Part shown: one piece after another, positions 23,299-48,391 of the stretch | Numbering within the stretch: position 1 is the first letter of the stretch | How the letters are laid out: the number at the start of each line of letters is the position of its first letter | DNA from: a virus | Taxonomy: Duplodnaviria > Heunggongvirae > Uroviricota > Caudoviricetes | Direction: 5' to 3' (one strand) | DNA: 64,000 nucleotides | IMG/VR virus record: IMGVR_UViG_3300024308_000004 | Coordinates: 38,641-102,640 of that record | The notes under the pieces: generated by a model | The model's database searches: none | What the model was told of the DNA's origin: nothing | The model's input: the letters and a program-made list of their open reading frames with translations, nothing else | Position numbers and translations under genes: made by a program

Positions 23299-23373
23299 AG
23301 GGCCGTAGCTGAGTGGTTTAGCTCTCGCCTTTTAAGCGAGTTGACGTGGGTTCGATCCCCACCGGCCCCACCA
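23299..23373 (+). tRNA. tRNA-Lys (anticodon TTT)
   Basis: Anticodon stem CTCGC/GCGAG with loop cTTTTaa. T-arm GTGGG-TTCGATC-CCCAC. 3' CCA encoded. Exact acceptor register uncertain. Confidence 0.7.
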
Positions 23374-23390
23374 ACATGAGTATCTTTAGG

Positions 23391-23466
23391 TGTGTGCGTT
23401 GACTGTATTGGTTCAGTCGCCTGATTGTGAGTCAGGAGCATGTGGGTTCAATTCCCATCGTACACC
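23391..23466 (+). tRNA. tRNA-His (anticodon GTG)
   Basis: Acceptor GTGTGCG/CGTACAC, D-stem GACT/AGTC, anticodon stem CCTGA/TCAGG with loop ttGTGag. T-arm GTGGG-TTCAATT-CCCAT. Position -1 is T, so no G-1 is encoded. C73. Confidence 0.7.
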
Positions 23467-23480
23467 CCTAAAGGTATTTA

Positions 23481-23568
23481 GGATAATTAGACGTTTAAGG
23501 AGAACGCCCCGGCTGTAACCCGGGTACCCTAACGGGTCCGCAAGGTTCGGTACCTTGATTATCCACCA
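23481..23568 (+). tRNA. tRNA-Tyr (anticodon GTA), class II with long variable arm
   Basis: Acceptor GGATAAT/ATTATCC plus A plus CCA. Anticodon stem CCCGG/CCGGG with loop ctGTAac. Variable-arm hairpin ACCC-taac-GGGT. T-arm CAAGG-TTCGGTA-CCTTG. Confidence 0.7.
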
Positions 23569-23692
23569 CATTGGACGTAAACGAAAAAGGCGTTATAGTA
23601 GGTAGAGTGCCGAGAACGCCTGAAAGACCCGAAGGTCTACGGACTAGTGAAGCTCTAGGCTCTACACGTCCAACCACACAGTAGGAGGTAAC

Positions 23693-23779
23693 ATGCTGAT
23701 CGTACAAGGCTTATTGTTCTTTGCCGTGATGCTCGCTGCCTTCTACGCCGTATGGAAAATCGGCACAACGAAAAAGTGA
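23693..23779 (+). CDS. Tiny hydrophobic peptide (28 aa) inside the tRNA island
   Basis: MLIVQGLLFFAVMLAAFYAVWKIGTTKK, preceded by an AGGAGG RBS. Confidence 0.2.
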   Translation: MLIVQGLLFFAVMLAAFYAVWKIGTTKK

Positions 23780-23859
23780 GGGGTCTTTATACCGTTAGGT
23801 GATTAGACTGTGGATACAAGTCGGGCTCTGTTGTTCACCCGAATCCTCACGAATGTTTA

Positions 23860-23936
23860 GGATTGTAAGCACAAGTGGTATATGCACCGGCCTGTTAAGC
23901 CGGGGACAGATGGTTCGAGTCCATCACAATCCGCCA
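23860..23936 (+). tRNA. tRNA-Asn (anticodon GTT)
   Basis: Acceptor GGATTGT/ACAATCC plus G plus CCA. Anticodon stem CCGGC/GCCGG with loop ctGTTaa. T-arm GATGG-TTCGAGT-CCATC. Confidence 0.7.
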
Positions 23937-24024
23937 GCCCGAATAGAGTCCGCATACAAAAACCGGGTAGCTCTCAATGGTTGTAGGTGACGATGGGTTT
24001 GTATAGGAACCTTCATGAATTCAT

Positions 24025-24101
24025 AGGCGCGTGGTGAAGTGGTCCAACACAGCAGACTTTGACTCTGCCATTCCTAGGTTCAAATCCTAGCGCGTCTGCC
24101 A
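24025..24101 (+). tRNA. tRNA-Gln (anticodon TTG)
   Basis: Acceptor AGGCGCG/CGCGTCT (one G-U pair) plus G plus CCA. Anticodon stem GCAGA/TCTGC with loop ctTTGac. T-arm CTAGG-TTCAAAT-CCTAG. Confidence 0.7.
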
Positions 24102-24120
24102 AACAACAAACGAGGACACT

Positions 24121-24393
24121 ATGAAAATCGGTGACATTGCAGCACACGGGCGTTACACTAACCGGATTGGTTTCGTTACTGCGGTCAACCACGCATCACA
24201 TGGTCCGATCAGTTCCTACGAAGTCGAGTGGCTGAACGGCTCGCAACAGGGCAAGCGGGATACGATTAGCGCATGGAACGTTGTTGACATGCAGGAAGCT
24301 CTGGAATCAGCGCGTGCCGAAGTCAACCGTCGTGAAAGCGACCTCATCAAGTGGTGTCACGCAGCAGCAATCGCAAAGATCGCCGTCAAGTAA
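24121..24393 (+). CDS. Hypothetical protein embedded in the tRNA island
   Basis: 90-aa ORF between tRNA-Gln and tRNA-Trp. Confidence 0.4.
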   Translation: MKIGDIAAHGRYTNRIGFVTAVNHASHGPISSYEVEWLNGSQQGKRDTISAWNVVDMQEALESARAEVNRRESDLIKWCHAAAIAKIAVK

Positions 24394-24397
24394 CAAA

Positions 24398-24473
24398 GTT
24401 TGGGTAGCTCAACAGGCAGAGCGCTGGTCTCCAAAACCAGAGGTTGTGAGTTCGACTCTCACCCCATTCGCCA
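24398..24473 (+). tRNA. tRNA-Trp (anticodon CCA), imperfect acceptor stem
   Basis: D-arm GCTC...GAGC. Anticodon stem CTGGT/ACCAG with loop ctCCAaa. T-arm GTGAG-TTCGACT-CTCAC. The acceptor GTTTGGG/CCCATTC has two U-U mismatches, so it may be a degenerate copy. Confidence 0.55.
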
Positions 24474-24563
24474 GTAAGAGCCGAAGTGAGAACTGGGGTA
24501 CGCCGCGAGGTCCCAGCGAGTCTGTTCCGACTATAAAAGTGTCTCACAAAGGCTCGATGTATC

Positions 24564-24639
24564 GCCGGTATAGCTCAGATGGTAGAGCAGCGCACTTGTA
24601 ATGCGCAGGTCCTGGGTTCGATGCCTAGTGCCGGCACCA
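24564..24639 (+). tRNA. tRNA-Thr (anticodon TGT)
   Basis: Clean cloverleaf. Acceptor GCCGGTA/TGCCGGC plus A plus CCA. D GCTC/GAGC. Anticodon stem GCGCA/TGCGC with loop ctTGTaa. T-arm CTGGG-TTCGATG-CCTAG. Confidence 0.85.
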
Positions 24640-24685
24640 CAAACCCGCTGTACGCCCCGGGGATAACGGGTGTACGACAAATTAC

Positions 24686-24762
24686 TGCGGGTTAGCTCAG
24701 TGGTTTAGAGCGTTCGGCTGATAACCGAGAGGTCGGGAGTTCAAATCTCTCACCCGCAACCA
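24686..24762 (+). tRNA. tRNA-Ile (anticodon GAT)
   Basis: Acceptor TGCGGGT/ACCCGCA plus A plus CCA. D GCTC/GAGC. Anticodon stem TTCGG/CCGAG with loop ctGATaa. T-arm GGGAG-TTCAAAT-CTCTC. Confidence 0.8.
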
Positions 24763-24896
24763 AAAGAGTCAGCGTGCGGGGTTCGAGACCCCGGTAGTCC
24801 GCGAGAGGGCTAAGTATTGCGGTACGACGTTGCACCTAAGTGACTATACTGGTATAGTCCGCTCCGGGGTCAGGCGTTATTGGCCTCATGTATTTA

Positions 24897-24973
24897 ACCG
24901 AGTGTAGCTCAATCTGGTGGAGCAACGCGTTTGGGGCGCGAAGGCTGGGAGTTCAAATCTCTCCGCTCGGACC
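24897..24973 (+). tRNA. tRNA-Pro (anticodon TGG)
   Basis: Acceptor CCGAGTG/CGCTCGG plus A plus CCA. D GCTC/GAGC. Anticodon stem CGCG/CGCG with loop ttTGGgg. T-arm GGGAG-TTCAAAT-CTCTC. Confidence 0.7.
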
Positions 24974-25170
24974 AAAAATGGAGGTGGTCTGCTAGGTGGA
25001 TTAGAAACCCATCGAGCATTGTTAGCCTCCAGATAAATGAGGTAGTTATTAGTAACGGCTGTAGGGCCGCCAACGTAAGACGCCTCAGATAAATAGGTGT
25101 TGAAACGGCCTTGTGTGGGCACTGTTCTGTTCCAACCTAGTTGCTAACAGTTCCAGACACCTAGATACAA

Positions 25171-25200
25171 AAAGGCCCCTCATTGAGGGGCCTTTTCTTT
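25171..25200. terminator. Bidirectional hairpin terminator AGGCCCCTC-att-GAGGGGCCT
   Basis: A runs precede and T runs follow the GC-rich stem. It closes the first tRNA block and also serves the convergent minus-strand ORF. Confidence 0.6.
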
Positions 25201-25364
25201 TACGAGCCTTGTGGCGGCTGTGCTTCCTGCAACTGCTGCACTTGGAACTCCAACATCTGAATACGACGAGACAGGTTAACAATCTGTGCCGGTGACGGGT
25301 CATCCCAGTTCGTCAGGGGTACAGCGTTGGGATCAAAGTCAAACGGTAAATCAGCCATCTCTAC
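25200..25364 (-). CDS. Possible minus-strand small protein (MADLPFDFDPN...)
   Basis: Internal ATG of minus ORF 25200-25421. Convergent with the bidirectional terminator. Acidic/Pro-rich N-terminus and Q-rich coiled C-terminus. Confidence 0.25.
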   Translation of the reverse strand, partial: VEMADLPFDFDPNAVPLTNWDDPSPAQIVNLSRRIQMLEFQVQQLQEAQPPQGS

Positions 25365-25421
25365 TACTCCTACTCCACGAATACAAGTGTCCATTGTCCC
25401 GCAAAAGTACATGCAGGTCAA

Positions 25422-25811
25422 ATGATTGCCACGTCATCCCTGTTCTATACTTGTCGCATGTTGATATACGCACGCACTCCAAAATCAAAACGCTACAAGC
25501 GTCCGGGCATGGGTGATGTAGCCAAGAAGTTACCCAAGCAGAAGTTCAAACCCAAAGCTGCGCCGAAAGAAACAAAGTTCCGCGCAGAAGGTACTGAAAA
25601 GTATCGCTCCAAGATTGACGAACACTTGGCGAATAACGAACCGGTCAACAAACAACCGTTACGTTATGAGGATGCAGACATGGCAGCACGCGAAGCGGAA
25701 GCGCAAAAAGAAATCAAGCGCAAGTCCGAATGCGTAGCGCCGGCATTCAACAAGGGAAATCTTACTTACATCGCTACCGAGGAACAAGCGAAGTGGGTAG
25801 GTAGAAAGTAA
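25422..25811 (+). CDS. Hypothetical basic (Lys-rich) protein
   Basis: ORF. Start uncertain, with alternative ATGs at 25458 and 25509. Confidence 0.35.
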   Translation: MIATSSLFYTCRMLIYARTPKSKRYKRPGMGDVAKKLPKQKFKPKAAPKETKFRAEGTEKYRSKIDEHLANNEPVNKQPLRYEDADMAAREAEAQKEIKRKSECVAPAFNKGNLTYIATEEQAKWVGRK

Positions 25812-25847
25812 CAAATCATCCGCAAAATCTCACTGAGGCTCGGTATA

Positions 25848-26111
25848 ATGCGTACCAACAAAGGCTTTACCCTCATCGAACTGATGATCGTGATGGCTAT
25901 TATTGGCATCCTGGCGTCGATCTTCTACCCCATGTGGCGTGATCGCAACCTGACGGACTATCAGCGCCAGCAAAAACGCGAAGCCCTGCAACGTGAGTAC
26001 GCCAACACAGGCGTCCGTTGCATCGGTGGTTACAAGTTTGCACAACCGGACTGGAACAATCCGCCCGTGCAGATCAAGGACAACACTGGTAACGGGATTC
26101 CGTGCCAGTAA
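25848..26111 (+). CDS. Type IVa prepilin-like protein
   Basis: N-terminus MRTNKG/FTLIELMIVMAIIGILASI: a short basic leader, then Gly-Phe and the conserved Glu5 hydrophobic helix. C-terminal Cys pair (C...C, ~28 aa apart) typical of the pilin disulfide D-region. The CGGTATAATG motif overlaps the start. Confidence 0.75.
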   Translation: MRTNKGFTLIELMIVMAIIGILASIFYPMWRDRNLTDYQRQQKREALQREYANTGVRCIGGYKFAQPDWNNPPVQIKDNTGNGIPCQ

Positions 26112-26225
26112 GTAAATGGTTAGAAGTGGTCGTCTAAACCTCCATGCAAGTCGGGAAGAGACTTGGGCTATTCGGATCAGGACACTGCCGTTTGAGGCAG
26201 AGATAATCTTCAACCAGATTTAAAC

Positions 26226-26310
26226 GGGCCGTTGGCGAAACAGGCATACGCAGCAGACTTAAAATCTGCCGGAGAAATCCATGAGGGTTCGATCCCCTCA
26301 CGGCCCACCA
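26226..26310 (+). tRNA. tRNA-Leu (anticodon TAA), class II
   Basis: Acceptor GGGCCGT/ACGGCCC plus A plus CCA (perfect). Anticodon stem GCAGA/TCTGC with loop ctTAAaa. Long variable arm. T-arm GAGGG-TTCGATC-CCCTC. Confidence 0.85.
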
Positions 26311-26326
26311 CTTTAGGAGATACACG

Positions 26327-26536
26327 ATGGACCTGTATGAAACGCTGGGCTTGAAGCGCCCAACCAAAGAAGAAATGGAAATGCACCACGTCGCAACGAT
26401 CGGCGACCTGGAAGTCAACGCGTCGGAACACCTGGTCAATGTCAAGTGCGACGGCGAAGTCATCCTGGCCATCATGCGCCACGATGGTGGCTTGCAGGAG
26501 CTGGTCGATGCCCTGCAATCGCAGGTCAAGCCGTGA
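26327..26536 (+). CDS. Hypothetical small protein
   Basis: 69-aa ORF with an AGGAG RBS. Confidence 0.35.
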   Translation: MDLYETLGLKRPTKEEMEMHHVATIGDLEVNASEHLVNVKCDGEVILAIMRHDGGLQELVDALQSQVKP

Positions 26537-26703
26537 CCAAGGAAGAGGGCGATCAGATTCGCCTAGCGTATGGCAAGGTACTGACATACGCGGACAAGGC
26601 GATGAAAACTCCACCAGGTGTGCATCGTCGGATCGCCTTGAACGAATACTCCAAGGCGAAGAATGAATTCCGGGCGTTGTTGCGATCCCTGGAAGGCAAG
26701 TAG
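26536..26703 (+). CDS. Hypothetical small protein
   Basis: GTG/ATG overlapping the upstream stop. Start uncertain; in-frame ORF from 26446. Confidence 0.3.
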   Translation, partial: TKEEGDQIRLAYGKVLTYADKAMKTPPGVHRRIALNEYSKAKNEFRALLRSLEGK

Positions 26704-26706
26704 GGA

Positions 26707-26779
26707 GTTCTAGTAGCTCAGTTGGTAGAGCAGCCGCCCTGTAAGCGGTGTGTCGGGGGTTCGAGTCCCTTCTAGTGTT
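26707..26779 (+). tRNA. tRNA, second Thr-like copy (anticodon TGT with atypical C33; no CCA)
   Basis: Acceptor GTTCTAG/CTAGTGT (one mismatch). D GCTC/GAGC. Anticodon stem GCCGC/GCGGT with loop ccTGTaa. T-arm GGGGG-TTCGAGT-CCCTT. Confidence 0.5.
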
Positions 26780-26946
26780 GACAAGGACACTTGTCATAGT
26801 AAACCCCGATCAGGATGATGCGTCCCTAGAAGACTTATTCATCCTTCTTAAGTAGGGTCAGATAGTTTAACGGCGAGAACGCCCTGCGAGCGCGGGGAAG
26901 TAGGGTTCGAGTCCCAGAAAACAGGTGTAATCACCTGGATCCGATC

Positions 26947-26985
26947 AAGGCGTATAACTATTGTGGTTATACGCCTTTCTTTTGT
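26947..26985 (+). terminator. Rho-independent terminator closing the tRNA island
   Basis: AAGGCGTATAAC-tattgtg-GTTATACGCCTT followed by TCTTTTGTT. Confidence 0.7.
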
Positions 26986-27080
26986 TCTAGGGCAGTGAAT
27001 TGTTCAATTAACACCGTGCGATTCTTAAACGCGCCGTGTAAATATTCTCTAAAATCACTGCACACAGACGAGAAAGTAAC

Positions 27081-28040
27081 ATGGATCATTTCAAGGACGT
27101 GAAGGTTGTTGATTCATCCGACACGAACGTTTCCAAGTATGTGTTTGACATGGGCTCGGCAGTCGCCGAAGCCGTACTGTATAAGTACGGAACCTATGAA
27201 GAACGTACCGTGATCTGTTGCTCCACCCAGTCAGGCTGCCCCATCGGTTGCCGTTTCTGCGGAGCCGGTGATGCGTTCGTTCGTAACCTGTCTGCGGAAG
27301 AAATCGTCGCGCAGGTGGATCATTTGTTCGCGGATCGCAACATCGATCCAACCCAGGTCAAGCGTGGACAGATCATGTTCATGTCCATGGGTGAACCGTT
27401 GCTGAACCTCAAGCAACTGATCCCGGCGATGGAGGTCCTGTACGCCAAGTACCCCAACTTCGCGTTGCTGATTTCGACCAGCGCTCCGCGAGTGGATTTC
27501 ACGCCGTTGTTCCGGGCAGCCGCGCTCATTCCGACCATTGGTTTGCAGTTCAGCGTCCACGAATCTACCGACGAGGCGCGTGACCGGCTGATCCCGTTCA
27601 AGAACAAGTACACCATCGCCGAGATTGCCATCCTCGGTGATATTTTCCACACCACTACGGGGCGTCAGGCGTTCTTCAACTACTGCGCCCATACGGACAA
27701 CACCGCGCAGGAAGATGCTGACCGCATCCACGCGCTGTTCAATCCTGCATCCTTCCAGGCAACGGTTTCGGTCATCTGCGAGCGGGATGAGTCCATCGCT
27801 GCTGCGAACGAACGACAGCGCGAACTTGCTACGGGATTCATGGGTAAGCTCTTGCAAAAGGGTTATTCCGTTCGCACATTCGACCCTGCTGGTCAGGACG
27901 ACATTGGAGGTGGCTGTGGTCAACTCTGGTTCGTGCAGGATTGGATGCGTCAACACCCTGATCTGGCCCGACCGTCCGTCGGTCGCGGGCTGCCCACTGT
28001 TCACACTCCACGAGCCATCGACGTAAAGGTGATCGAATGA
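27081..28040 (+). CDS. Radical SAM RNA methyltransferase, RlmN/Cfr family
   Basis: Family-specific signature ICCSTQSGCPIGCRFCGAG (CxSxQxGC-x3-C-x2-C) and FMSMGEPLLN (RlmN GMGEPLxN). At 319 aa it is shorter than bacterial RlmN. Confidence 0.8.
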   Translation: MDHFKDVKVVDSSDTNVSKYVFDMGSAVAEAVLYKYGTYEERTVICCSTQSGCPIGCRFCGAGDAFVRNLSAEEIVAQVDHLFADRNIDPTQVKRGQIMFMSMGEPLLNLKQLIPAMEVLYAKYPNFALLISTSAPRVDFTPLFRAAALIPTIGLQFSVHESTDEARDRLIPFKNKYTIAEIAILGDIFHTTTGRQAFFNYCAHTDNTAQEDADRIHALFNPASFQATVSVICERDESIAAANERQRELATGFMGKLLQKGYSVRTFDPAGQDDIGGGCGQLWFVQDWMRQHPDLARPSVGRGLPTVHTPRAIDVKVIE

Positions 28041-28315
28041 CCCAAGAAGTAGAGGTATCCGATGACAGCGAGCCAGCTGAAATCGAAGGCGAAATCCTTG
28101 AAGCGGACGACCTGACGTACTTCGTCTCCGGACCTTCGTGTGGCTTCATCGTCCAGGGCAAGCAATACATCAAGCCCATGACCATTGCGGCGTGCATGAT
28201 TAACGGCGACCCCGAGGAAGCATACACGCACCAGCAGGTCAAGTCCGTCGCAGTCGTTCCGCAACAGCCGTCAGTCCATCTGATGACCCGTCGCCACAAT
28301 ACCACCTTGCATTGA
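28037..28315 (+). CDS. Hypothetical acidic protein
   Basis: ORF overlapping the rlmN-like stop. Confidence 0.35.
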   Translation: MTQEVEVSDDSEPAEIEGEILEADDLTYFVSGPSCGFIVQGKQYIKPMTIAACMINGDPEEAYTHQQVKSVAVVPQQPSVHLMTRRHNTTLH

Positions 28316-28322
28316 GGCATTC

Positions 28323-28535
28323 ATGTTCGATCCCGCAATTACCGACCTTTACAAGCGCGCCCATGAACTGCGCAACGCCCAGCGGAACTACATCGCAGAC
28401 GGCACGCGCAACGAAATCCTGGGCCGAGAAGTCCACAACGCAGCCGAACGTCTCGATGCGGCGTTGCAAGTCGTAGAAGATGAAGGCTACATTGCGGAGA
28501 AGGATATCCGCGACGTGCGCCCGGTGACGCCGTAA
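28323..28535 (+). CDS. Hypothetical protein
   Basis: 70-aa ORF. Confidence 0.35.
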   Translation: MFDPAITDLYKRAHELRNAQRNYIADGTRNEILGREVHNAAERLDAALQVVEDEGYIAEKDIRDVRPVTP

Positions 28536-28708
28536 TGTGGGTCTTGATCCTGACCCTGGCGATGCGTGGTCAAGCTGTTACGGTAACCACGCAGGACGGC
28601 TTCGCGTCGCAGGAATCCTGCATGATCGCCGCGAAGGCATGGACGGAACAGGTTGAAAGGATGCCACTCAGCAATCTGCACCGACGCGCCCTTTGTGTCC
28701 GCAAGTAA
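28535..28708 (+). CDS. Small secreted/membrane-anchored protein (57 aa)
   Basis: MWVLILTLAMRGQA signal-like N-terminus. Under 60 aa, so not in the ORF track. Confidence 0.3.
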   Translation: MWVLILTLAMRGQAVTVTTQDGFASQESCMIAAKAWTEQVERMPLSNLHRRALCVRK

Positions 28709-28884
28709 GCCCGTTACTTAACGCTTCTAGGTCTTCACGAAACGCGTATACTAATCACATGTCGCAGCGATCTACATCCGCTGCGATAACAGAACCAAGC
28801 GTGATGGCTTGTGGTTGTCACAGAGGGTGACACTAATGACCGGGGTAGTGCCCGGGTACCCTTCGACTCTGGTGGGAAGCCAGA

Positions 28885-29006
28885 GACCATAAGAAGTTCT
28901 GCTGTCCAACACCCGCATTAACGTGATGCCGGTGTAAGCAAAGTCCTAGTCGATTACCTCCTAGTTGCCGAATAGGACGGACAGGGCAGCAGAACTTCTT
29001 ATGGTC
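28885..29006. repeat. Perfect 20-bp inverted repeat forming a ~120-nt stem-loop (GACCATAAGAAGTTCTGCTG ... CAGCAGAACTTCTTATGGTC)
   Basis: Arms at 28885-28904 and 28987-29006 in a 310-nt noncoding region. The 3' arm abuts the GAGGAG RBS of the gene starting at 29019. Confidence 0.6.
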
Positions 29007-29018
29007 GAGGAGATTCAC

Positions 29019-29216
29019 ATGTCTGCCAAAGAAGTAGAACTGCCGCGCGGGGATACGTTTGATTCCCAGATGCGCAGGTACACCTTCAGTGAGGGTCAGG
29101 TGCGTGATATCCTGACCATCTATACCCAGAAACAGCAGGATGAAATTGATCGCCTGCGTTCTGAGGTTGACGGTTTGAAAATGAGTATCGCCCTTGCTGA
29201 AATGGGCGATGAATAA
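29019..29216 (+). CDS. Hypothetical protein
   Basis: ATG at 29019 after a GAGGAG RBS (in-frame ORF from 28965). Confidence 0.4.
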   Translation: MSAKEVELPRGDTFDSQMRRYTFSEGQVRDILTIYTQKQQDEIDRLRSEVDGLKMSIALAEMGDE

Positions 29217-29241
29217 CCACAGACGTTGATGGAAAGAAATC

Positions 29242-29592
29242 ATGTCAAAGCCTGATGCGGCGTTGTTCGTTCTGGTAGGCAGGAAGCCGGCCTACAACAA
29301 GATTTTCTTGGCGCCAAAGTCCGCGTTGCAGTGGTGCTATAACGCGGACTACGGTGACCAGCCAATACCAAGGAACGTTCTTGGTGATCTGACACCGTTC
29401 CTGGACTCGGATTACGATGGCGATCCTGCAACGGACACGTTTGACATTACTCCGGGGTCTGCCGATAATGACGTAGCGCTGGCGTTGAGCCAAGTATGCC
29501 GCGCGTTCAAGAGTCCGATTGAAGCGATGGAATATGCGTTCGCGCATTACACCGTCAATTCGGCTGACTGCTACACGGGTCTGGAATATTGA
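29242..29592 (+). CDS. Hypothetical protein
   Basis: 116-aa ORF immediately upstream of the tmRNA gene. Confidence 0.5.
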   Translation: MSKPDAALFVLVGRKPAYNKIFLAPKSALQWCYNADYGDQPIPRNVLGDLTPFLDSDYDGDPATDTFDITPGSADNDVALALSQVCRAFKSPIEAMEYAFAHYTVNSADCYTGLEY

Positions 29593-29927
29593 CCTAGGTT
29601 TATGGTTGTATGACGTGAAGTGAAGGGTGCTTGGACGGTGGTTCAACTCCACCCAGGTCCACCACAAATCAGTCTTAGTCGAGGTGCCGGCGTTACTGGC
29701 TGAGACTGATTTGTAATGGGCCTGCCGGGTTTCGACAGGCGCAGATAGCAGAACCGACAACTAAGGGTAGGCACTCCTTGACGCACACGCGTCGATAGTC
29801 CACAATAAAACATAATCGCCAATGACGACATGTTTGTGGTGGCCCTCGCGGCCTGATCCACTGGGGTCTTGAACGACCTTATTACCCAATAGTTCACGAT
29901 AAGCCCGAGGTCCGCCTCGGGCTTTTT
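29593..29927 (+). ncRNA. ssrA: Circularly permuted (two-piece) tmRNA gene
   Basis: Acceptor piece ending ~29664 with T-arm GGTGG-TTCAACT-CCACC and CAGGTCC-A-CCA. Inter-piece hairpin 29665-29713. Coding piece starts at 29718 with GGGCCTGCCGGGTTTCGACAGG, so G3:U70 plus A73. Tag ORF 29818-29856 (ANDDMFVVALAA then stop). Terminator 29902-29927. Confidence 0.8.
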
Positions 29928-29987
29928 CGTTGTGCAGCATCCCATATTTAACCTAGATATAGTGATTGCACACACTGGAGAACGTCA

Positions 29988-30430
29988 TGACCACGTATGC
30001 AGTAGTTGATCCACGGGATATCCGTGACGACGCGGAGCAGGCTGAACTGGGCCTGACACGACTGCTCGGTATACGGTTCGAGGAACTTGCCGATGAAGTC
30101 TACGAGGACGAAGAAAACAATACCTTCGGATGGTTCGGTCTGCGTAAGGTCCAGAAGCGCTACAGCCGTCGCCAGATCGGTCAGTGGATGCAGGAAATCC
30201 TGAACGACGCACCACGCAGCAAGGACAATGGCATCCGCGATTACTGGTCAGCGCAAGGCACACAGTTCTCCTACGCTGGCTACAAGCATCACGTCATCGA
30301 TCCGGTACGTGACCTGATCCGTGCGGCGCGTGACCTGAACACGCAGGAACTACGCGTTGACGCGCGTACCATGCGTCTGTTTGAGGATGCGTATGCTGCG
30401 GGCGCTCGCCGTTACGAGCCCGAAGAATAA
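29988..30430 (+). CDS. Hypothetical protein
   Basis: ORF; start at ATG 29988 or 29966. Confidence 0.45.
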
Positions 30431-30460
30431 TCAACACACAATCACACGCACATACAAACC

Positions 30461-30967
30461 ATGAAAGCCATTCAGAAAATCATCCTCGACGGGTCGACCA
30501 CGCAAGTGAACCTGATCGACAACGATGCGGTCGAGGTCCACCACGTACCGCTCGCAGAGCTGCCGTTCTTCCTGATCGAACTGGCAGTGACGGACAAGGG
30601 CATCGATGCTGCCGCCACTGCGACGATCACTCACTCGCCGGAAATCGTACAGGCTATCCAGGACGTGAAGACTGCCCTGGCAGGTATCGGACTGGATGCA
30701 ACCACAGCAGGCGTGTTTGCAACGACCTTCTGCGGCGATACCCGGGACGAAATCACTGCCATGTCGGACTCGGTATTGAACGCCATCGCCAAGCTGCTGC
30801 GTGAATCTGGCTTCAAGTCCAAGGCGTTCGATGGACGTTCGTACACGGGCAATCTGACCTGTGTTGAATGGCTGGAAGGATTCCGTTACGGTTTCATCCG
30901 TGCGTCGGATGAAAAGCTCCAGCAGGAACTGGAAGGCATGTTGCAGCCCGAGATTGGTGCATGGTAA
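30461..30967 (+). CDS. Hypothetical protein
   Basis: 168-aa ORF. Confidence 0.45.
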   Translation: MKAIQKIILDGSTTQVNLIDNDAVEVHHVPLAELPFFLIELAVTDKGIDAAATATITHSPEIVQAIQDVKTALAGIGLDATTAGVFATTFCGDTRDEITAMSDSVLNAIAKLLRESGFKSKAFDGRSYTGNLTCVEWLEGFRYGFIRASDEKLQQELEGMLQPEIGAW

Positions 30968-31037
30968 TCAACCGTCATTTCATCATGACGCCGTTTGTTA
31001 CCAGTACATAATACTCACGCAACGCAAACAACTTAAC

Positions 31038-31129
31038 GGGTACGTGACTGAGCTAGGCTTAAGGTGCCGGTCTTGAAAACCGATGACGGGGTGACTCGTC
31101 CGTGGGTTCAAATCCCACCGTACCCTCCA
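31038..31129 (+). tRNA. tRNA-Ser (anticodon TGA), class II
   Basis: Acceptor GGGTACG/CGTACCC plus T plus CCA (perfect). Anticodon stem CGGT/ACCG with loop ctTGAaa. Long variable arm. T-arm GTGGG-TTCAAAT-CCCAC. Confidence 0.85.
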
Positions 31130-38447: not shown

Positions 38448-38782
38448 GTGGACGCCTCGTGTTGGTCAGCGCGTGCAATTGAATAAGGTGGGGTATGCAA
38501 CGCTTCACCTGACTTCCAACGAAGCGCATGAACAAGCCAAGCAAATGGTGATTACGGATGTGGAGAACCTCGGGTACGCACATGCGCCCATCTGGGCCAT
38601 CGAGGTTGACCAGCCGCTTATCAATGTTTTCCTCCTCGACTCGTCAATGGTCGACCCACTCTTTTGAGGTGTCTATGATCGGCTTCATCAAAGCAATCAT
38701 CCAAATGATTCGTGACGGTTTCGCGCTGCATCATGCGGCTCACCGTCGTCACGGTGGCAACCCCTGGAAATAAGGAACCAAT

Positions 38783-42073: not shown

Positions 42074-42115
42074 ATCCCGCGTTATTCTAGGACTTTAGTT
42101 CTAGGAGCGCGGGAT
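42074..42115 (+). promoter_or_regulatory. Hairpin sequestering the HNH start codon and RBS
   Basis: ATCCCGCG ... CGCGGGAT inverted repeat. The 3' arm contains the RBS TAGGAG and the AT of the ATG (42114). The inner region carries TTCTAGG direct repeats. Confidence 0.4.
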
Positions 42116-42569
42116 GAAGCTTTGTAAGGATTGTGAAGTAGAAATGACAGAGGAGAACACCTATAAATCAGGTGGCTCTTACTGCAAACCTTGTGCGCAA
42201 GCGCGGACTCGCAGACACTACCACGAAAACAAAGAAAAGCGGGTAGAGTACGGCAAGACGTATAAGAAAAAGACCAAATACCATCAAAGGACTTGGTTAA
42301 AAGAAAAGTTAGCCTGCCTTGAGCATTACTCGGGCGGCAAGCCGTACTGTAAAGGTTGCGGCATAGAGAACTTAGAGGTTCTCACTATCGACCACATTCA
42401 CGAAGATGGCGCTGCTCACCGAAAGGAAATTGGGCAAAGCGTTCAACGCTGGTTGATTGCAAACAAATTCCCCGAAGGTTTTCAGGTGCTTTGTTGGAAT
42501 TGCAACAACGCCAAGCATCGTCATGGCGAAATTCCTCGGTATACTTATCGGCAATTAACCGGAGTATAA
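42114..42569 (+). mobile_element. HNH homing endonuclease ORF (low-GC insertion-like cassette)
   Basis: HNH motif LTIDHIHEDG ... CWNCNNAKHRHG plus N-terminal zinc-finger Cys pairs. Visibly lower GC (eyeballed as mid-40s percent) than flanking DNA. Confidence 0.8.
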
Positions 42570-42571
42570 CC

Positions 42572-43135
42572 ATGGCCACAATCAAAGTAATGGGCATCGA
42601 CGCGGCTTTCTCAAACGTCGGATTCGCCCTGACAGAAATGGACTTAACGAATCCCAAGAAAGCCATTGTGAAATTGCTTGATCTGCATATTGTGCAGACA
42701 GAGGGATTAAAGAAACGCCCGAAGGGTGTTCCTAAGTCCGCAGATGACATGCGCCGAGCGCGTGAATCCATCGAAGCGATCCGAGCCAAGATCGCAGAGT
42801 GGCAGCCCGACTACATCGTCGCGGAAGTTCCATTCGGCTCACAATCCGCACGTAGCGCTTGGACTCTAGGTATCGCCCTGGGGATTTTGTCGTCCATTGA
42901 TGGCTTGATTCAAGTCACCCCACGACAAGTCAAGGCAGCGACCGGTGAGGCGTATGCTGACAAAGAGGAAATGATTGCGTGGGCAATGGACAAATTCCCG
43001 GATGGTCCTTGGAAGATGCGCAAGTTACACGGCAAATACATCCAAGTGGCATCAACCAACGAACATATGGCCGACGCAGTTGCCGCCACGTTCGCGGGAA
43101 TTCCAGAGATTTACGGGAAGATGCAAGCATCTTAA
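42572..43135 (+). CDS. RuvC-like Holliday junction resolvase
   Basis: N-terminus VMGIDAAFSNVGFAL (compare RuvC ILGIDPGSRVTGYGV), acidic DYIVAEVPFG, and C-terminal EHMADAVAATFAG (compare RuvC DAADALAIA). GC lower than the phage average, as for the HNH gene. Confidence 0.6.
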   Translation: MATIKVMGIDAAFSNVGFALTEMDLTNPKKAIVKLLDLHIVQTEGLKKRPKGVPKSADDMRRARESIEAIRAKIAEWQPDYIVAEVPFGSQSARSAWTLGIALGILSSIDGLIQVTPRQVKAATGEAYADKEEMIAWAMDKFPDGPWKMRKLHGKYIQVASTNEHMADAVAATFAGIPEIYGKMQAS

Positions 43136-43252: not shown

Positions 43253-45106
43253 ATGACAGAGAAAGATTACACCCGCAAGCGCGCCCGGGATATGCGTGCA
43301 GGGATCAGCATTGATTACACCCGCGACAGCCTGTTGACCGATTTCGGCAAGGCTACCCTGGATCGTTCGTATCTGATGGCTGATGAAAAATACCAAGACG
43401 CCTTTGCGCGAGTTGCCGGTTACTACGGCGATGACGCTGCACACGCACAGCGGCTCTACGACCGCATTTCCAAGCATCACTTCATGCCAGCCACTCCAGT
43501 GTTGTCCAATGGTGGTACTACGCGTGGTATGCCGATCAGTTGCTTCCTGAACGACGTGCCGGATAGTATCGAAGGCATTCAGGATACTTGGAACGAGAAC
43601 GTGGCTCTTGCGCGTCATGGTGGTGGTATCGGTACTTATTGGGGCGATGTGCGTTCGATGGGCGAAATCGTCGGTGGCAACGGTAAGACCACTGGTGTCA
43701 TTCCGTTCATGAAGGTTCAGGATTCGATGACGCTGGCTATTTCGCAGGGTTCGCTGCGTCGTGGCTCAGCGGCCATGTATCTGCCCGTCTGGCACCCCGA
43801 AATCGAGGAATTCCTGGACATTCGTCGACCAACTGGTGGTGATCCGAACCGCAAGGCCCTGAATCTTCACCACGGTATTGCCGTCGATGACGCCTTCATG
43901 CAAGCCGTTGAACGCGGTTGTGATTACGACCTTAAATCCCCGAAGACTGGCATGACTATTCGTACCATTCCGGCACGTAATCTGTGGGCGAAGATCCTCC
44001 AGACGCGCATGGAACAGGGCGAACCGTACATCCTGTATATCGATACGGTCAATCGTGCCTTGCCAAGCCACCAGTCCATGTTGGGTTTGAAGGTCAAACA
44101 GTCCAATCTGTGCGTGGAGATTACACTCCCGACCGGTATTGATCCGTGGGGTAAGAAGCGCACGGCTGTTTGCTGTTTGTCCTCGCTGAACCTGGAACGC
44201 TGGGACGAATACGCGGACGACATTGAGCAGGTGGTTGAAGACGCACTGCGGTTCCTGGATAACGTGCTGGAAGATTTCATCCAGACGGCTCCGCCCGAGT
44301 TCGCCCTGGCTGTGTATTCGGCTATTCGTGAGCGCAGCGTGGGTCTGGGTGTGATGGGCTTCCATTCGTATCTGCAATCCAAGGGTGTCGCGTTTGAGTC
44401 CGAAGAAGCCGCAAGGATCAACAAAGATATCCATGTGCGAATCGCGCGAGCCGCCGAAGCTGCAAACTACAAGCTCGCAGTTGAACGTGGCGCGTGTCAG
44501 GATGCTGAACAGTTAGGTCACATGAAGCGCTTCTCCAACATGACGGCACATGCTCCGACTGCGAGCATTTCCATCATCGCTGGTACGACTTCGCCCATGA
44601 CTGAACCGGTGTTGACCAATTCGTTCTCGCAGAAGACCTTGTCTGGTACGTTCAATGTCCAGAACAAGTACCTGACGGCACTACTGGATGCAAAGGCTCA
44701 GAACACCAAGGCTGTGTGGTCAGATATTGTGGCTAATGGTGGTTCCGTACAACACTTGACCTTCCTGACGCCGGATGAAAAGGCTGTGTTCAAGACCGCG
44801 TTTGAGATTGACCAGTGGTGGGTTGTGCGTCACGCCGGCGACCGTCAGCCGTTCATCAATCAGTCCCAGTCGGTGAATCTGTTCCTGCGTCCCGATATCC
44901 ACAAGCGCGAATTACATAGCCTACACATGCAGGCTTGGAAAGCCGGAGTAAAATCTCTGTACTACTGCCGTTCGCAGGCTATCAAGCGTGCCGAGGCAGT
45001 TAACGTGAAAGTCGCCAACTACGAAGACAAGGCTCTGGAAGCAGCAGCCAAGATCGAGGAAGAAGATGACCAAGCAAAGTATGAGGTTTGTGCAGCGTGT
45101 CAGTAA
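43253..45106 (+). CDS. nrdA: Ribonucleotide reductase class I large subunit (NrdA-like, no ATP cone)
   Basis: RNR catalytic-core motifs (PISCFLNDV, NLCVEI region, HGGGIGTYWG) and a C-terminal redox-active Cys pair CAAC. Confidence 0.9.
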   Translation: MTEKDYTRKRARDMRAGISIDYTRDSLLTDFGKATLDRSYLMADEKYQDAFARVAGYYGDDAAHAQRLYDRISKHHFMPATPVLSNGGTTRGMPISCFLNDVPDSIEGIQDTWNENVALARHGGGIGTYWGDVRSMGEIVGGNGKTTGVIPFMKVQDSMTLAISQGSLRRGSAAMYLPVWHPEIEEFLDIRRPTGGDPNRKALNLHHGIAVDDAFMQAVERGCDYDLKSPKTGMTIRTIPARNLWAKILQTRMEQGEPYILYIDTVNRALPSHQSMLGLKVKQSNLCVEITLPTGIDPWGKKRTAVCCLSSLNLERWDEYADDIEQVVEDALRFLDNVLEDFIQTAPPEFALAVYSAIRERSVGLGVMGFHSYLQSKGVAFESEEAARINKDIHVRIARAAEAANYKLAVERGACQDAEQLGHMKRFSNMTAHAPTASISIIAGTTSPMTEPVLTNSFSQKTLSGTFNVQNKYLTALLDAKAQNTKAVWSDIVANGGSVQHLTFLTPDEKAVFKTAFEIDQWWVVRHAGDRQPFINQSQSVNLFLRPDIHKRELHSLHMQAWKAGVKSLYYCRSQAIKRAEAVNVKVANYEDKALEAAAKIEEEDDQAKYEVCAACQ

Positions 45107-45303: not shown

Positions 45304-46779
45304 ATGTCCCTGTTTGAAGAACGTATTGCCTTCAAGCCGTTCCAGTATCCCTGGGCATACGAGGCTTGGCTGACTCAGCAAAAGATGCACTGGCTGCCGG
45401 AAGAAGTTCCGATGGCTGACGACGTGCAGGACTGGAAGAACAAACTGTCGCCCAACGAGCGCAATCTGGTTACCCATATCTTCCGGTTGTTTACACAGTC
45501 CGACGTGGAAGTTTCCAAGTCGTATCATATGGTCTACATGCCGCGCATCAAACCCATCGAACTCCAGATGATGCTGGCTTCCTTCCAGAACATGGAAACT
45601 ATCCACGCTGCGGCTTACTCGCACTTGCTGGATACGCTGGGCCTGCCTGAAACCGAGTACAACAAGTTCCTGGAATACCAGGCCATGAAGGACAAGTGGG
45701 AAACCTGGCAGAACTACATGGACCCGCAGACGGATGAAGAACTCGCCCTGTCGATGGCAGCGTTTGGTGGCTTCACCGAAGGCGCACAGTTGTTTGCATC
45801 CTTTGCCATGCTGTTGAATTTCCCGCGTCACAACAAGCTCAAGGGCATGGGTCAAATTATCACTTGGTCGGTTCGTGACGAAACGCTCCATTGTGAATCG
45901 GTAATCAAGTTATTCCACGCGCTGTTGGCTGAAAAACCCCATCTGAATACCCCGCGCCTGCGTGAACTGATCGAAACCCACGCTCGGCAGGTTGTTGAGC
46001 AGGAAGACCGGTTCATTGACCTGGCGTTTGAAATGGGCGATCAGGAAGATTTGACCGCAGAGGATATGAAGCAATACATGCGGTTCATTGTTGATCGCCG
46101 TTTGATCCAGCTGGGTTACAAGGGCATCTTCAAGGTCAAGGAAAACCCCCTCGACTGGATGGATACCATGCTGAACACCGTGGAACACGTCAACTTCTTT
46201 GAACAGCGTGGCACTGAGTACGCCAAGGCTGCGACGCAGGGCGAATGGGGCGATGTGTGGGACATGGTTGACAGCGTTGGTAGCGACGAGTGGGTGGTTT
46301 ACAGCAAGGACGGTTGTGGGTTGTGCGTTGAAGCCAAGCGTATGTTGGCTGATCGCGGTATTCACCCGACGGTAGTAGACCTGACCGATGATGCAGAACG
46401 CGCGGCGTTCTACGAGCGCACACCGGGCATTGACTACATGCCGTTCGTAACCAAGAACGGTCGTCCGATCGGTGGTTGCAACGAGCTGGATGAATTCCTG
46501 GCCGGCAATGAAACTTACCTGGAACTCAAGCCTGTATCTGAATGGGTGGTTTACAGCAAGACAGGCTGTCCGGGTTGCGTTGTAGCCAAGCGCCAACTTA
46601 CACAGATGGGCTTTGAGTACGAGGAAGTGGTCTGCGATGAAGAAGACACCCGCAAGGACCTGTACGCCAAGACCGGACTACGCACGATGCCTATCGTGAT
46701 GCACCGTGGTCATGTGGTTGGTTCCAGCAACGACCTGCGGAACTACCTTAATGCTCACCGTGAAGAACTGACCAAGTAA
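45304..46779 (+). CDS. nrdB: Ribonucleotide reductase small subunit NrdB fused to two C-terminal glutaredoxin-like domains
   Basis: Ferritin-like R2 core (~320 aa) followed by two ~80-aa repeats, each with VVYSK-x-GC-x-x-C (CGLC and CPGC) and a C-terminal glutaredoxin fold signature. Confidence 0.85.
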   Translation: MSLFEERIAFKPFQYPWAYEAWLTQQKMHWLPEEVPMADDVQDWKNKLSPNERNLVTHIFRLFTQSDVEVSKSYHMVYMPRIKPIELQMMLASFQNMETIHAAAYSHLLDTLGLPETEYNKFLEYQAMKDKWETWQNYMDPQTDEELALSMAAFGGFTEGAQLFASFAMLLNFPRHNKLKGMGQIITWSVRDETLHCESVIKLFHALLAEKPHLNTPRLRELIETHARQVVEQEDRFIDLAFEMGDQEDLTAEDMKQYMRFIVDRRLIQLGYKGIFKVKENPLDWMDTMLNTVEHVNFFEQRGTEYAKAATQGEWGDVWDMVDSVGSDEWVVYSKDGCGLCVEAKRMLADRGIHPTVVDLTDDAERAAFYERTPGIDYMPFVTKNGRPIGGCNELDEFLAGNETYLELKPVSEWVVYSKTGCPGCVVAKRQLTQMGFEYEEVVCDEEDTRKDLYAKTGLRTMPIVMHRGHVVGSSNDLRNYLNAHREELTK

Positions 46780-46913: not shown

Positions 46914-47543
46914 ATGACACAAGCAAATTACCAAATCCAGCTGGATGCACAAACCGCGATGATTACTGGCTTGCAGGCGCAAGTGGCAGTCCTGGCTGAC
47001 CAGCATCAGGTGCAGTCGAGCACCATCAAGGTGGTTGTGACCGACGAACGCGTGGGTGAAAATCTGCCAGAAGTGCAGACCGTTGATTCTGCTGGTTTTG
47101 ACCTACGTGCGTATCCGCGTGGCAGGCGCCACTGGGTTGACATTGATGCGGCAAATCAGATTGTCAAGAAGGGTTTTGAGGATGATATGCCGCTCGATTC
47201 GATCGTCTTGGGCCCGGGCGAACAAGCGATAGTATCGACCGGTCTGCGTGTATGGATTGACAAGCCGGGTTACGCTGGCTTTATGTTCGCTCGCAGTGGC
47301 ATGGGCGTGAAGGGTTTGGTGCTGGGCAACGGCACGGGCGTGATTGATTCGGACTATCAGGGCGACCTGAAAATGTGTCTGTGGAATCGTAGTGATGAAG
47401 CCATCACCATCAACGCTGGTGATCGCGTTGCACAGTTGGTCATCATGCCGGTCTTGACTGGCTACAAGATGGAAGTGGTTGAGTCTTTTGAAACCGAGAC
47501 TGAACGTGGCACTGGTGGTTTCGGTAGCACAGGAGTTCAGTAA
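46914..47543 (+). CDS. dut: dUTP pyrophosphatase (trimeric dUTPase) with N-terminal extension
   Basis: Motifs [22 protein letters not shown] and C-terminal [10 protein letters not shown]. The second ATG is preferred. Confidence 0.75.
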
Positions 47544-48391
47544 TGTCCAATAACGAAATGCAGTACGAGGGAGCCTTACGATATGTTTACGAAAACGGTG
47601 TTGAGTCTGGCGATCGGACTGGCGTTGGCACGCGGCGTGTATTCGGGCTTCAATACCGCTACGACCTTTCAAAAGCGTTCCCACTTATCACCTCCAAGCG
47701 CGTCCACTTCAAGTCGGTAATCGCTGAACTGGTCTGGATGCTGTCCGGCTCAACCAACGCCAAGGAGCTTAACGAACTGGGTGCGACCATCTGGGACGAG
47801 TGGGCGAACGAAGACGGCGAACTGGGTCCGATCTACGGCAAACAGTGGCGTGCGTGGAATCATACCACCGTGCAGCCCCTGGGTTATGGTAAGTGGATTC
47901 AAGAACAGCAAATCGACCAAATCAAGTGGGTCGTGGATGAAATTCGTCGCAACCCTGATTCACGTCGCCTGATCGTCAGCGCTTGGAACCCTGCTGACAT
48001 TCCGGATATGGCTCTGGCTCCGTGTCACACGTTGTTCCAGTTCGTCGTGATCGATGGCAAGCTGCATTGTCAGTTGTACCAGCGCAGTGCGGATATGTTC
48101 CTGGGTGTGCCGTTCAATCTGGCGTCTTATGCGTTGCTGACGCATATGGTCGCGGCGTGTACCGGTCTGGAAGTTGGTGACTTCGTGCATACCATTGGCG
48201 ATGCCCATATCTATTCCAATCACATGGACCAGGTCAAGGAACAACTGTCACGTCCCGTCAAGGACCTGCCACAGTTGCTGTTCACCAATCCGTACGAAGG
48301 TGTTGTTTATCCCTGGGAGTTCAAGGTCGAAGACTTTGAAGTCGATGGCTACAAACCCCATCCCGCGATTAAAGCTGATGTAGCCGTGTAA
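47543..48391 (+). CDS. thyA: Thymidylate synthase (ThyA)
   Basis: [22 protein letters not shown] (catalytic Cys) and [16 protein letters not shown] overlaps the dut stop (TAATG). Confidence 0.9.

Follow-up and report, generated by a model that had tools for sequence, protein, structure and literature searches.

The window analysed in this study is a stretch of 64,000 nucleotides from a virus of the class Caudoviricetes (IMG/VR record IMGVR_UViG_3300024308_000004, positions 38,641 to 102,640 of that record). It codes for a class I ribonucleotide reductase (RNR), and the gene of interest is the one encoding the beta subunit of this enzyme, NrdB. An earlier reading of the letters alone, hereafter the original prediction, described this open reading frame (ORF) as a ferritin-like R2 core followed in frame by two C-terminal glutaredoxin (Grx) domains, each opening with EWVVYSK-x-GC-x-x-C. 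Our results confirm that the protein consists of an R2 core, a tail and two Grx domains (Table 1). The core is matched by Pfam Ribonuc_red_sm (PF00268) over residues 7-282, with an E value of 6.3e-75 and 252.6 bits against a cut-off of 33.6, and by the RNR beta model NF007186 of NCBIfam over residues 1-323 (471.2 bits; cut-off 237). Pfam Glutaredoxin (PF00462) detects two stretches of the ORF with a joint E value of 3.3e-21, and each domain lies above the cut-off of 22.9 bits when scanned singly, Grx1 with 37.4 bits and Grx2 with 46.7 bits. The two predicted active sites were read at residues 338-341 (CGLC; nucleotides 46315-46326) and 422-425 (CPGC; nucleotides 46567-46578), and EWVVYSK stands before both of them, in agreement with the prediction. 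The AlphaFold2 model of the 491-residue protein, built as a single chain, has a mean predicted local distance difference test (pLDDT) score of 82.7.

Table 1. Features of the nrdB-grx-grx gene and of the genes around it, in window coordinates.
Feature	Position	Strand	Remarks
nrdB-grx-grx ORF, whole	45304..46779	+	491 aa plus stop codon; uninterrupted
R2 ferritin-like core	45304..46203	+	aa 1-300; PF00268
Alpha-docking tail and short linker	46204..46284	+	aa 301-327; QRGTEYAKAATQGEWGDVW
Grx1, glutaredoxin domain (probable insert)	46285..46530	+	aa 328-409; Pfam Glutaredoxin
Grx2, glutaredoxin domain (probable resident)	46531..46776	+	aa 410-491; Pfam Glutaredoxin
53-nt direct repeat, 5' end of Grx1	46288..46340	+	79% identity to its partner at 46540-46592, the 5' end of Grx2
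nrdA, class I RNR catalytic subunit	43253..45106	+	617 aa; Pfam Ribonuc_red_lgN and lgC only
Codons for the NrdA C613-A-A-C616 pair	45089..45100	+	motif location; presumed electron acceptor of the Grx domains
Cys-rich ORF, 78 aa	45066-45302	+	CxxC...C...C...CxxC; 41-nt overlap with the end of nrdA
dUTPase, 213 aa	46902-47543	+	Pfam dUTPase at aa 101-211
Thymidylate synthase	47543-48391	+	
HNH-like ORF	42114-42569	+	phrog_2255, E 8.8e-14; Pfam HNH below cut-off
RuvC-like ORF	42572-43135	+	

An unusual architecture is the sole ground for suspecting a sequencing or assembly artefact, that is, a frameshift or a chimera fusing nrdB to separate grx genes, and we found no evidence in its support. The exact 491-residue protein is recorded on nine contigs. 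In the four loci that were fetched, the nrdB DNA is identical to that of the window, and these loci come from four independent samples (JGI 3300034073, SRR11566350, ERZ27245855 and SRR7690231) and from three assembly pipelines, namely JGI, Logan (SRR11566350 and SRR7690231) and ENA (ERZ27245855). In addition, a second lineage (P0271, P0272 and P0276; found in SRR13742875, ERZ27275936, ERZ27275947 and the GenBank contig JACCDR012425305.1) codes for proteins 92-93% identical to that of the window, and it keeps the same length of 491 residues and the same frame across approximately 150 synonymous differences. The cultured Stenotrophomonas phages BUCTxx99 and ANB28 share the in-frame junction of core, tail and Grx in a single-Grx form (405-residue protein, DNA about 80% identical). 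A frameshift at position ~46260, which the original prediction had singled out for checking, is excluded by the identical DNA of the four samples and by the second 491-residue lineage. Hence, the chance that the fused gene is an artefact is negligible.

The R2 core carries the metal ligands D67, E98, H101, E159, E193 and H196 and the radical tyrosine Y105, which sits in the motif E-x-x-H-x-x-x-Y. The six ligands and Y105 are all invariant in an alignment of 24 sequences (A2). In the AlphaFold2 model the core is helical and confidently predicted, with pLDDT values mostly between 80 and 96, and its best solved match is the NrdB of Francisella hispaniensis (9dws; TM score 0.93 when normalised to the target, 46% identity). 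A fold search with the full-length model returned R2 structures throughout the top 50 matches listed and gave no information on the Grx domains.

In class I RNRs, the tail of the beta subunit docks on the alpha subunit and bears a tyrosine of the radical-transfer path. This tail is kept whole in the window protein (TEY306...G313-x-W315-x-x-x-W319), where it is internal instead of C-terminal. Residues Y306, G313 and W315 are invariant in the same alignment, and Y306 is presumed to be the radical-transfer tyrosine equivalent to Y356 of E. coli. Residues 301-327 have pLDDT values below 50, that is, they are predicted to be disordered, as in free beta tails. In the homologues the motif reads NFFE-x-R-x-TEY-x-K-x-x-T-x-G-x-W-x-x-x-[FW], and most of those that lack a C-terminal Grx (48 of 86) stop one residue past it. 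According to the original prediction, the tail is buried by the fusion, and an unusual subunit interface follows from this. Our data do not support such an interface, because the docking tail is retained and not lost or replaced. Moreover, 30 further homologues with a single Grx extend past the same motif, and the NrdA partner is an ordinary, full-score member of its family. A free C-terminus of beta is thus dispensable for the docking tail in this clade. This result bears on tail-mimicking RNR inhibitors; in the peptides of this type for mammalian R2, the free C-terminal carboxylate matters. Another conserved extension, of about 40 residues, follows the tail motif in NrdB homologues of 384-392 residues (…MLxxSTxETAxSPVNxxxWxExKFxxTFKPLQExxG…; carriers include P0045, P0048, P0050, P0057, P0063, P0066, P0074, P0080 and P0086). 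In this separate group, too, the docking tail is internal. These homologues also bear an N-terminal extension of about 30 residues, and neither extension has a Pfam match.

Both Grx domains were modelled with the thioredoxin-fold order of elements beta-alpha-beta-alpha-beta-beta-alpha and a CxxC site where the first helix begins, with pLDDT values of 73-89 for Grx1, a part of the model made without alignment depth, and of 89-97 for Grx2. In Grx1 the active site is followed by a cis-Pro site (YMP) and by IGGCNEL, and the linker GNETYLELK comes after the domain; the corresponding sites of Grx2 are TMP and VGSSNDL. The best solved relatives of Grx1 are the class I glutaredoxins 3rhb (GrxC5), 2khp and 2e7p (poplar Grx), all of them weak matches (E 2e-5 to 1e-3), and those of Grx2 are 1nm3 (the Grx domain of H. 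influenzae HI0572) and 3uiw. NrdH structures match only Grx2, and they do so marginally (E 0.003-0.007). The cut-offs of the NrdH-redoxin models were missed as well, with 50 bits against 85.75 for TIGR02194 and 34.9 against 131 for NF007657. Judged by their sequences, both domains resemble class I-type dithiol glutaredoxins and seem nearer to the glutathione-type class I enzymes than to NrdH. The original prediction had spoken of two repeats, and both Grx domains are indeed real. They are not duplicates, however, but two different types of Grx that share 38% amino-acid identity. No further Grx- or thioredoxin-like ORF was detected in the window in a phmmer search of limited sensitivity, which compared ORFs of at least 50 residues with Grx1, Grx2 and an E. 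coli TrxA sequence.

Fusion of one Grx to the C-terminal side of NrdB is common. Of the top 120 homologues, 31 (the window protein among them) run directly from the tail motif into a Grx, and in these fusions the first active-site Cys lies 12-24 residues (median 15) past the motif. Single C-terminal Grx domains are found in the NrdB of Caulobacter phage CcrColossus (467 residues, with a long linker) and in that of Sphingobium phage Lacusarx (466 residues). Both proteins were considered as double-Grx candidates and rejected, because a single Grx is combined in them with a long linker or with an N-terminal extension. A tblastn match points to the single-Grx design in Xanthomonas phage JGB6 as well. 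In the JGB6 record (locus L005, 480-5439), the annotation splits each of nrdA, nrdB and thyA into two or three successive pieces, which suggests many frameshift errors in that deposited genome; the window gene is intact. The fusion also occurs on the chromosome of Dyella telluris (P0009, on a 4.99-Mb contig), which codes for a 414-residue NrdB with one C-terminal Grx of the CPYC type. Three homologues (P0017, P0019 and P0033) have a Grx match, yet the protein ends at the tail motif, and their Grx is probably N-terminal, as in Francisella.

The tandem arrangement is far more restricted. When 1.84 billion cluster representatives were searched exhaustively with HMMER, the best 150 matches included no other NrdB with two Grx domains. 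P0131, likewise a protein of 491 residues, proved to be an unrelated CAP-domain protein. When the segment comprising the tail, Grx1 and Grx2 was used as the query, the scan of IMG/VR viral contigs gave no match, and the scan of metagenome contigs recovered the contig already known as the source of P0276 plus two tail-only matches. A word-indexed search of a set of 5.8 billion proteins with Grx1 only returned 0 candidates and is uninformative. The rarity of the tandem is bounded by the sensitivity of these searches and by the clustering of the searched sets. Rozman Grinberg et al. 2018 (PMC6187632) class CcrColossus and the phiCbK-like phages under Glutaredoxin:NrdB (NrdBk) in their Table S1; in the available portions of the text and table, the C-terminal position of those viral fusions is not stated. 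Searches of the literature on C-terminal or tandem Grx-NrdB fusions, on Francisella NrdB and on the RNR of Stenotrophomonas or phiCbK phages yielded nothing beyond that paper and its Table S1. Altogether, the NrdB-Grx fusion itself is already known, its single-Grx form being frequent in sequence databases and mentioned, though poorly described, in the literature. The new part is the tandem, which is seen only in this phage group.

The two domains differ in their relatives. In the nearest homologues (P0002-P0006 and P0008), the single Grx is of the CPGC type and shares 71-79% identity with Grx2; the only Grx of BUCTxx99 and ANB28 aligns with Grx2 as well. When the window gene is compared with those of the two cultured phages, Grx1 and its linker stand out as one clean block, inserted in frame behind the tail and ahead of the resident domain. 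No other fused Grx exceeds 50% identity to Grx1, and the closest one is the single Grx of P0007 (an NrdB with 70% identity to the window protein). This Grx and Grx1 share a one-residue insertion (xPG) and the DLTDDA and PIGG motifs. In a neighbour-joining tree, Grx1 groups with P0007, outside the Grx2 clade, in 67.5% of 200 bootstraps. These comparisons suggest that Grx2 is the resident domain and Grx1 the insert. A simple tandem duplication was rejected: a recent one is excluded because the two domains are only 38% identical, and Grx1 falls outside the Grx2 clade. An old duplication, later lost in other lineages, would be another route to the same arrangement. We infer a recombination between two NrdB-Grx alleles that carried different types of Grx. 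One Grx would be the ancestral and widespread state of this NrdB clade, and this phage group would have gained a second one, of another type, behind the tail and ahead of the resident CPGC domain. The likely source of Grx1 would be another NrdB-Grx allele, recombined at the conserved start coding for EWVVYSK. The identity between the first 53 nucleotides of the two domains (Table 1) is far above the similarity of the remaining domain sequence, and this repeat may be the footprint of recombination or gene conversion.

On the other hand, the tandem could be a recent recombination accident that adds no function, Grx1 being a selectively neutral passenger. The confinement of the tandem to one narrow phage group is in line with such an accident, and other members of the same 90% cluster bear one Grx. 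Besides, the 53-nucleotide repeat at the domain starts could promote events of this kind. However, the ratio of nonsynonymous to synonymous substitution rates (dN/dS) between the window gene and the second lineage, as obtained from pairwise Nei-Gojobori estimates at dS values of about 0.7-0.9, is 0.044 for the core, 0.085 for the tail, 0.058 for Grx1 (dS 0.94) and 0.116 for Grx2. Grx1 is therefore under purifying selection as strong as that on the R2 core, and both domains are maintained. The motifs CGLC, CPGC and IGGCNEL and both cis-Pro sites are identical across all 491-residue variants, so that the active-site and glutathione-site motifs of Grx1 are all unchanged. Because of its low dN/dS and its unchanged motifs, Grx1 is neither a decaying copy nor a neutral passenger, and an accident without function is strongly disfavoured and very improbable.

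Class I RNRs need to be re-reduced after every turnover. The electrons come from an external redoxin and are carried to the active site by a mobile C-terminal Cys pair of the alpha subunit. The NrdA encoded in the window has the catalytic NLCVE at residues 285-289, a YY pair at residues 570-571 and the terminus ...VCAACQ, and it scores 896 bits against NCBIfam NF006577 (cut-off 620). The CAAC pair that the original prediction assigned to this C-terminus was located at residues 613-616, and the absence of an ATP cone on NrdA, also claimed there, agrees with the Pfam domains found (Table 1). We consider that the fused gene probably codes for the beta subunit of a phage class I RNR, with a tethered reductant module of its own. 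The R2 core would generate the tyrosyl radical, and the conserved tail with Y306 would dock into NrdA as in any class I enzyme. The first Grx starts approximately 10 residues past the end of the tail, and the second follows after a linker of about 10 residues. The docked beta subunit would then hold both Grx domains at a very high local concentration near the flexible CAAC pair of NrdA. The Grx domains would re-reduce this pair after each turnover and would in turn be recharged by host glutathione and NADPH. As for the presence of two domains, we favour the view that they would give more reach or capacity than one. Such an enzyme would be independent of the redoxin proteins of the host, but not of the host reducing system, because its domains still need to be recharged by glutathione and NADPH (or thioredoxin reductase).

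The idea of a built-in reductant is plausible given the purifying selection on both domains and the analogy with the Grx::ATP-cone::NrdB protein (NrdBi) of Facklamia ignava, whose fused Grx is reported to reduce its own RNR efficiently with glutathione as the donor (PMC6187632). In both cases a Grx is located on the NrdB chain, and the partner NrdA has no ATP-cone and ends in a C-terminal Cys pair. Unlike the window protein, the Facklamia enzyme has a single N-terminal Grx followed by an ATP-cone, and it belongs to another R2 subclass. In the window protein there are two Grx domains, both C-terminal and placed after the docking tail, and there is no ATP-cone anywhere. The Francisella Grx::NrdB (NrdBk; NF009398; core 9dws) falls in the same broad NrdB clade, provides the closest solved core and also has a Grx. 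This Grx is N-terminal, whereas those of the window protein are C-terminal. The window protein misses the cut-off of NF009398, the model of N-terminal Grx/RNR beta fusions (331.7 bits against 649), and matches profile positions 99-408 only, which correspond to the R2 part. BUCTxx99 and ANB28 have the same design of core, tail and Grx, 85-87% identity to the window protein and the same neighbouring genes. However, the single-Grx phages (BUCTxx99, ANB28, JGB6, CcrColossus, Lacusarx and numerous metagenomic relatives) have no extra Grx between the tail and the resident Grx. Tandem Grx domains on the chain of a thiol-dependent enzyme are also found in the metagenomic proteins P0123, P0126 and P0128, but there the arrays comprise four domains and are N-terminal, and they sit on enzymes unrelated to NrdB, a pyridine-nucleotide disulfide oxidoreductase or a methionine sulfoxide reductase.

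Several observations weigh against a tethered reductant module with two working domains. The CxxC tail of NrdA is also present in the single-Grx phages BUCTxx99 and ANB28, at locus L013, which is likewise of the single-Grx form, and in the second double-Grx lineage (L010). Since the tails of single- and double-Grx phages are identical, nothing in NrdA signals a need for the second Grx. No specific Grx subfamily model reaches its cut-off (GRX_bact, 71 against 90; GlrX-dom, 94 against 99.3), so that glutathione is a presumed electron donor. Two relatives at 90% identity or more (P0273 and P0274) have only one Grx, and the bootstrap value that joins Grx1 to P0007 was obtained on about 75 columns. 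Finally, the transfer of electrons is deduced from sequence, and the fusion that serves as experimental precedent is N-terminal and belongs to another NrdB subclass.

The main rival to more capacity or reach is a division of labour between the two domains. Grx1 would exchange disulfides with the CAAC pair of NrdA, and Grx2 would take electrons from glutathione or another donor and pass them to Grx1; in a variant of this relay, one domain would serve the NrdA protomer in cis and the other in trans. The two domains are of different Grx types, with differing CxxC dipeptides and GG/GS motifs, and both are conserved independently, as would be expected if their tasks differed. Multi-Grx arrays elsewhere, in which four Grx domains are joined to a pyridine-nucleotide disulfide reductase or to MsrA, also speak for a relay. 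Nevertheless, the CPGC domain is sufficient for the entire task, since the single-Grx relatives run with this type alone, directly beside the tail. In addition, the case for a relay is built on sequence types and not on redox potentials or domain contacts. Taken together, the two forms of this division of labour seem unlikely.

A different task for Grx1 may also be considered. In this case, Grx2 would be an ordinary tethered reductant of NrdA, and the CGLC site of Grx1 would hold, together with glutathione, a [2Fe-2S] cluster bridging the two beta protomers. Such a domain could act as a redox or iron sensor, or could aid in building or maintaining the di-iron tyrosyl cofactor, and YfaE or Grx3/4 play a comparable part in the care of this cofactor in cells. 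If true, cofactor care and turnover reduction would be combined on one viral polypeptide. Beta is a dimer, hence two Grx1 domains would lie close together, and Grx1 keeps the framework of a glutathione site (SK-x-x-C, cis-Pro and IGGC). The CGLC site has no proline, and a proline-free site lets class I glutaredoxins hold a stable cluster, as documented for human GLRX2 (CSYC) and poplar GRXC1 (CGYC) (PMC8161271). The inclusion of GrxC5 and the poplar Grx among the best solved relatives of Grx1 points in the same direction, but these matches are weak. Furthermore, Grx1 has Leu where cluster-binding glutaredoxins carry Tyr, and the rest of the locus gives no hint of iron handling. The lack of proline is not a specific trait either, as it is common in the sites of single Grx domains fused to NrdB homologues (CKWC, CQYC, CSYC, CVFC, CIYC and CVYC). 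The glutaredoxin of phage T4 (CVYC), which is an ordinary RNR reductant, likewise counts against a cluster in Grx1. We regard this assignment of tasks, including the cofactor-related variant, as quite improbable.

If the tethered reductant module is correct, this natural fusion identifies the reductant of an RNR in the gene itself. Such a reductant is usually hard to pin down, including how it reaches the NrdA tail. The location of a Grx about 10 residues past the docking peptide constrains where the reductant sits on the holoenzyme. Likewise, phages of this one group with one or two Grx domains, together with the two different active sites, form a natural comparison set for parallel, serial or separate-target action. 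The fused enzyme would also add to the examples of viruses whose nucleotide supply relies less on host proteins.

The plus strand of this region is a nucleotide-metabolism block that comprises the HNH-like and RuvC-like ORFs, nrdA, the Cys-rich ORF, nrdB-grx-grx and the genes for dUTPase and thymidylate synthase. A scan for promoters and terminators around the operon gave results at or below chance level. The N-terminal ~100 residues of the dUTPase are only partly covered by a DCD-like model, and in the second lineage this gene is called at 222 residues. The 78-residue Cys-rich ORF between nrdA and nrdB has no Pfam or PHROG match and is conserved in the second double-Grx lineage. At its position ANB28 has a gene for a 171-residue HNH endonuclease, and the N-terminal CxxC regions of the two are weakly similar. 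This ORF may be the remnant of a homing endonuclease or may code for a small zinc-ribbon protein. The HNH-like ORF lies just upstream of the RuvC-like gene and nrdA; at its position the annotation of ANB28 has an ORF of equal length, and that of BUCTxx99 has none. Mobile endonucleases seem to be gained and lost in the neighbourhood of the nrd genes.

Elsewhere in the window, a phage tRNA cluster on the plus strand (23299-31129) holds 12 tRNA genes: Lys, His, Tyr, Asn, Gln, Trp, Thr (two copies), Ile, Pro, Leu and Ser. Within this cluster lies a permuted tmRNA gene of the two-piece type (29572-29947, plus strand), for which ARAGORN gives the tag peptide ANDDMFVVALAA. The Rfam model tmRNA_permuted (RF04321) matches it at 29604-29856 with 88 bits, against a gathering score of 47.

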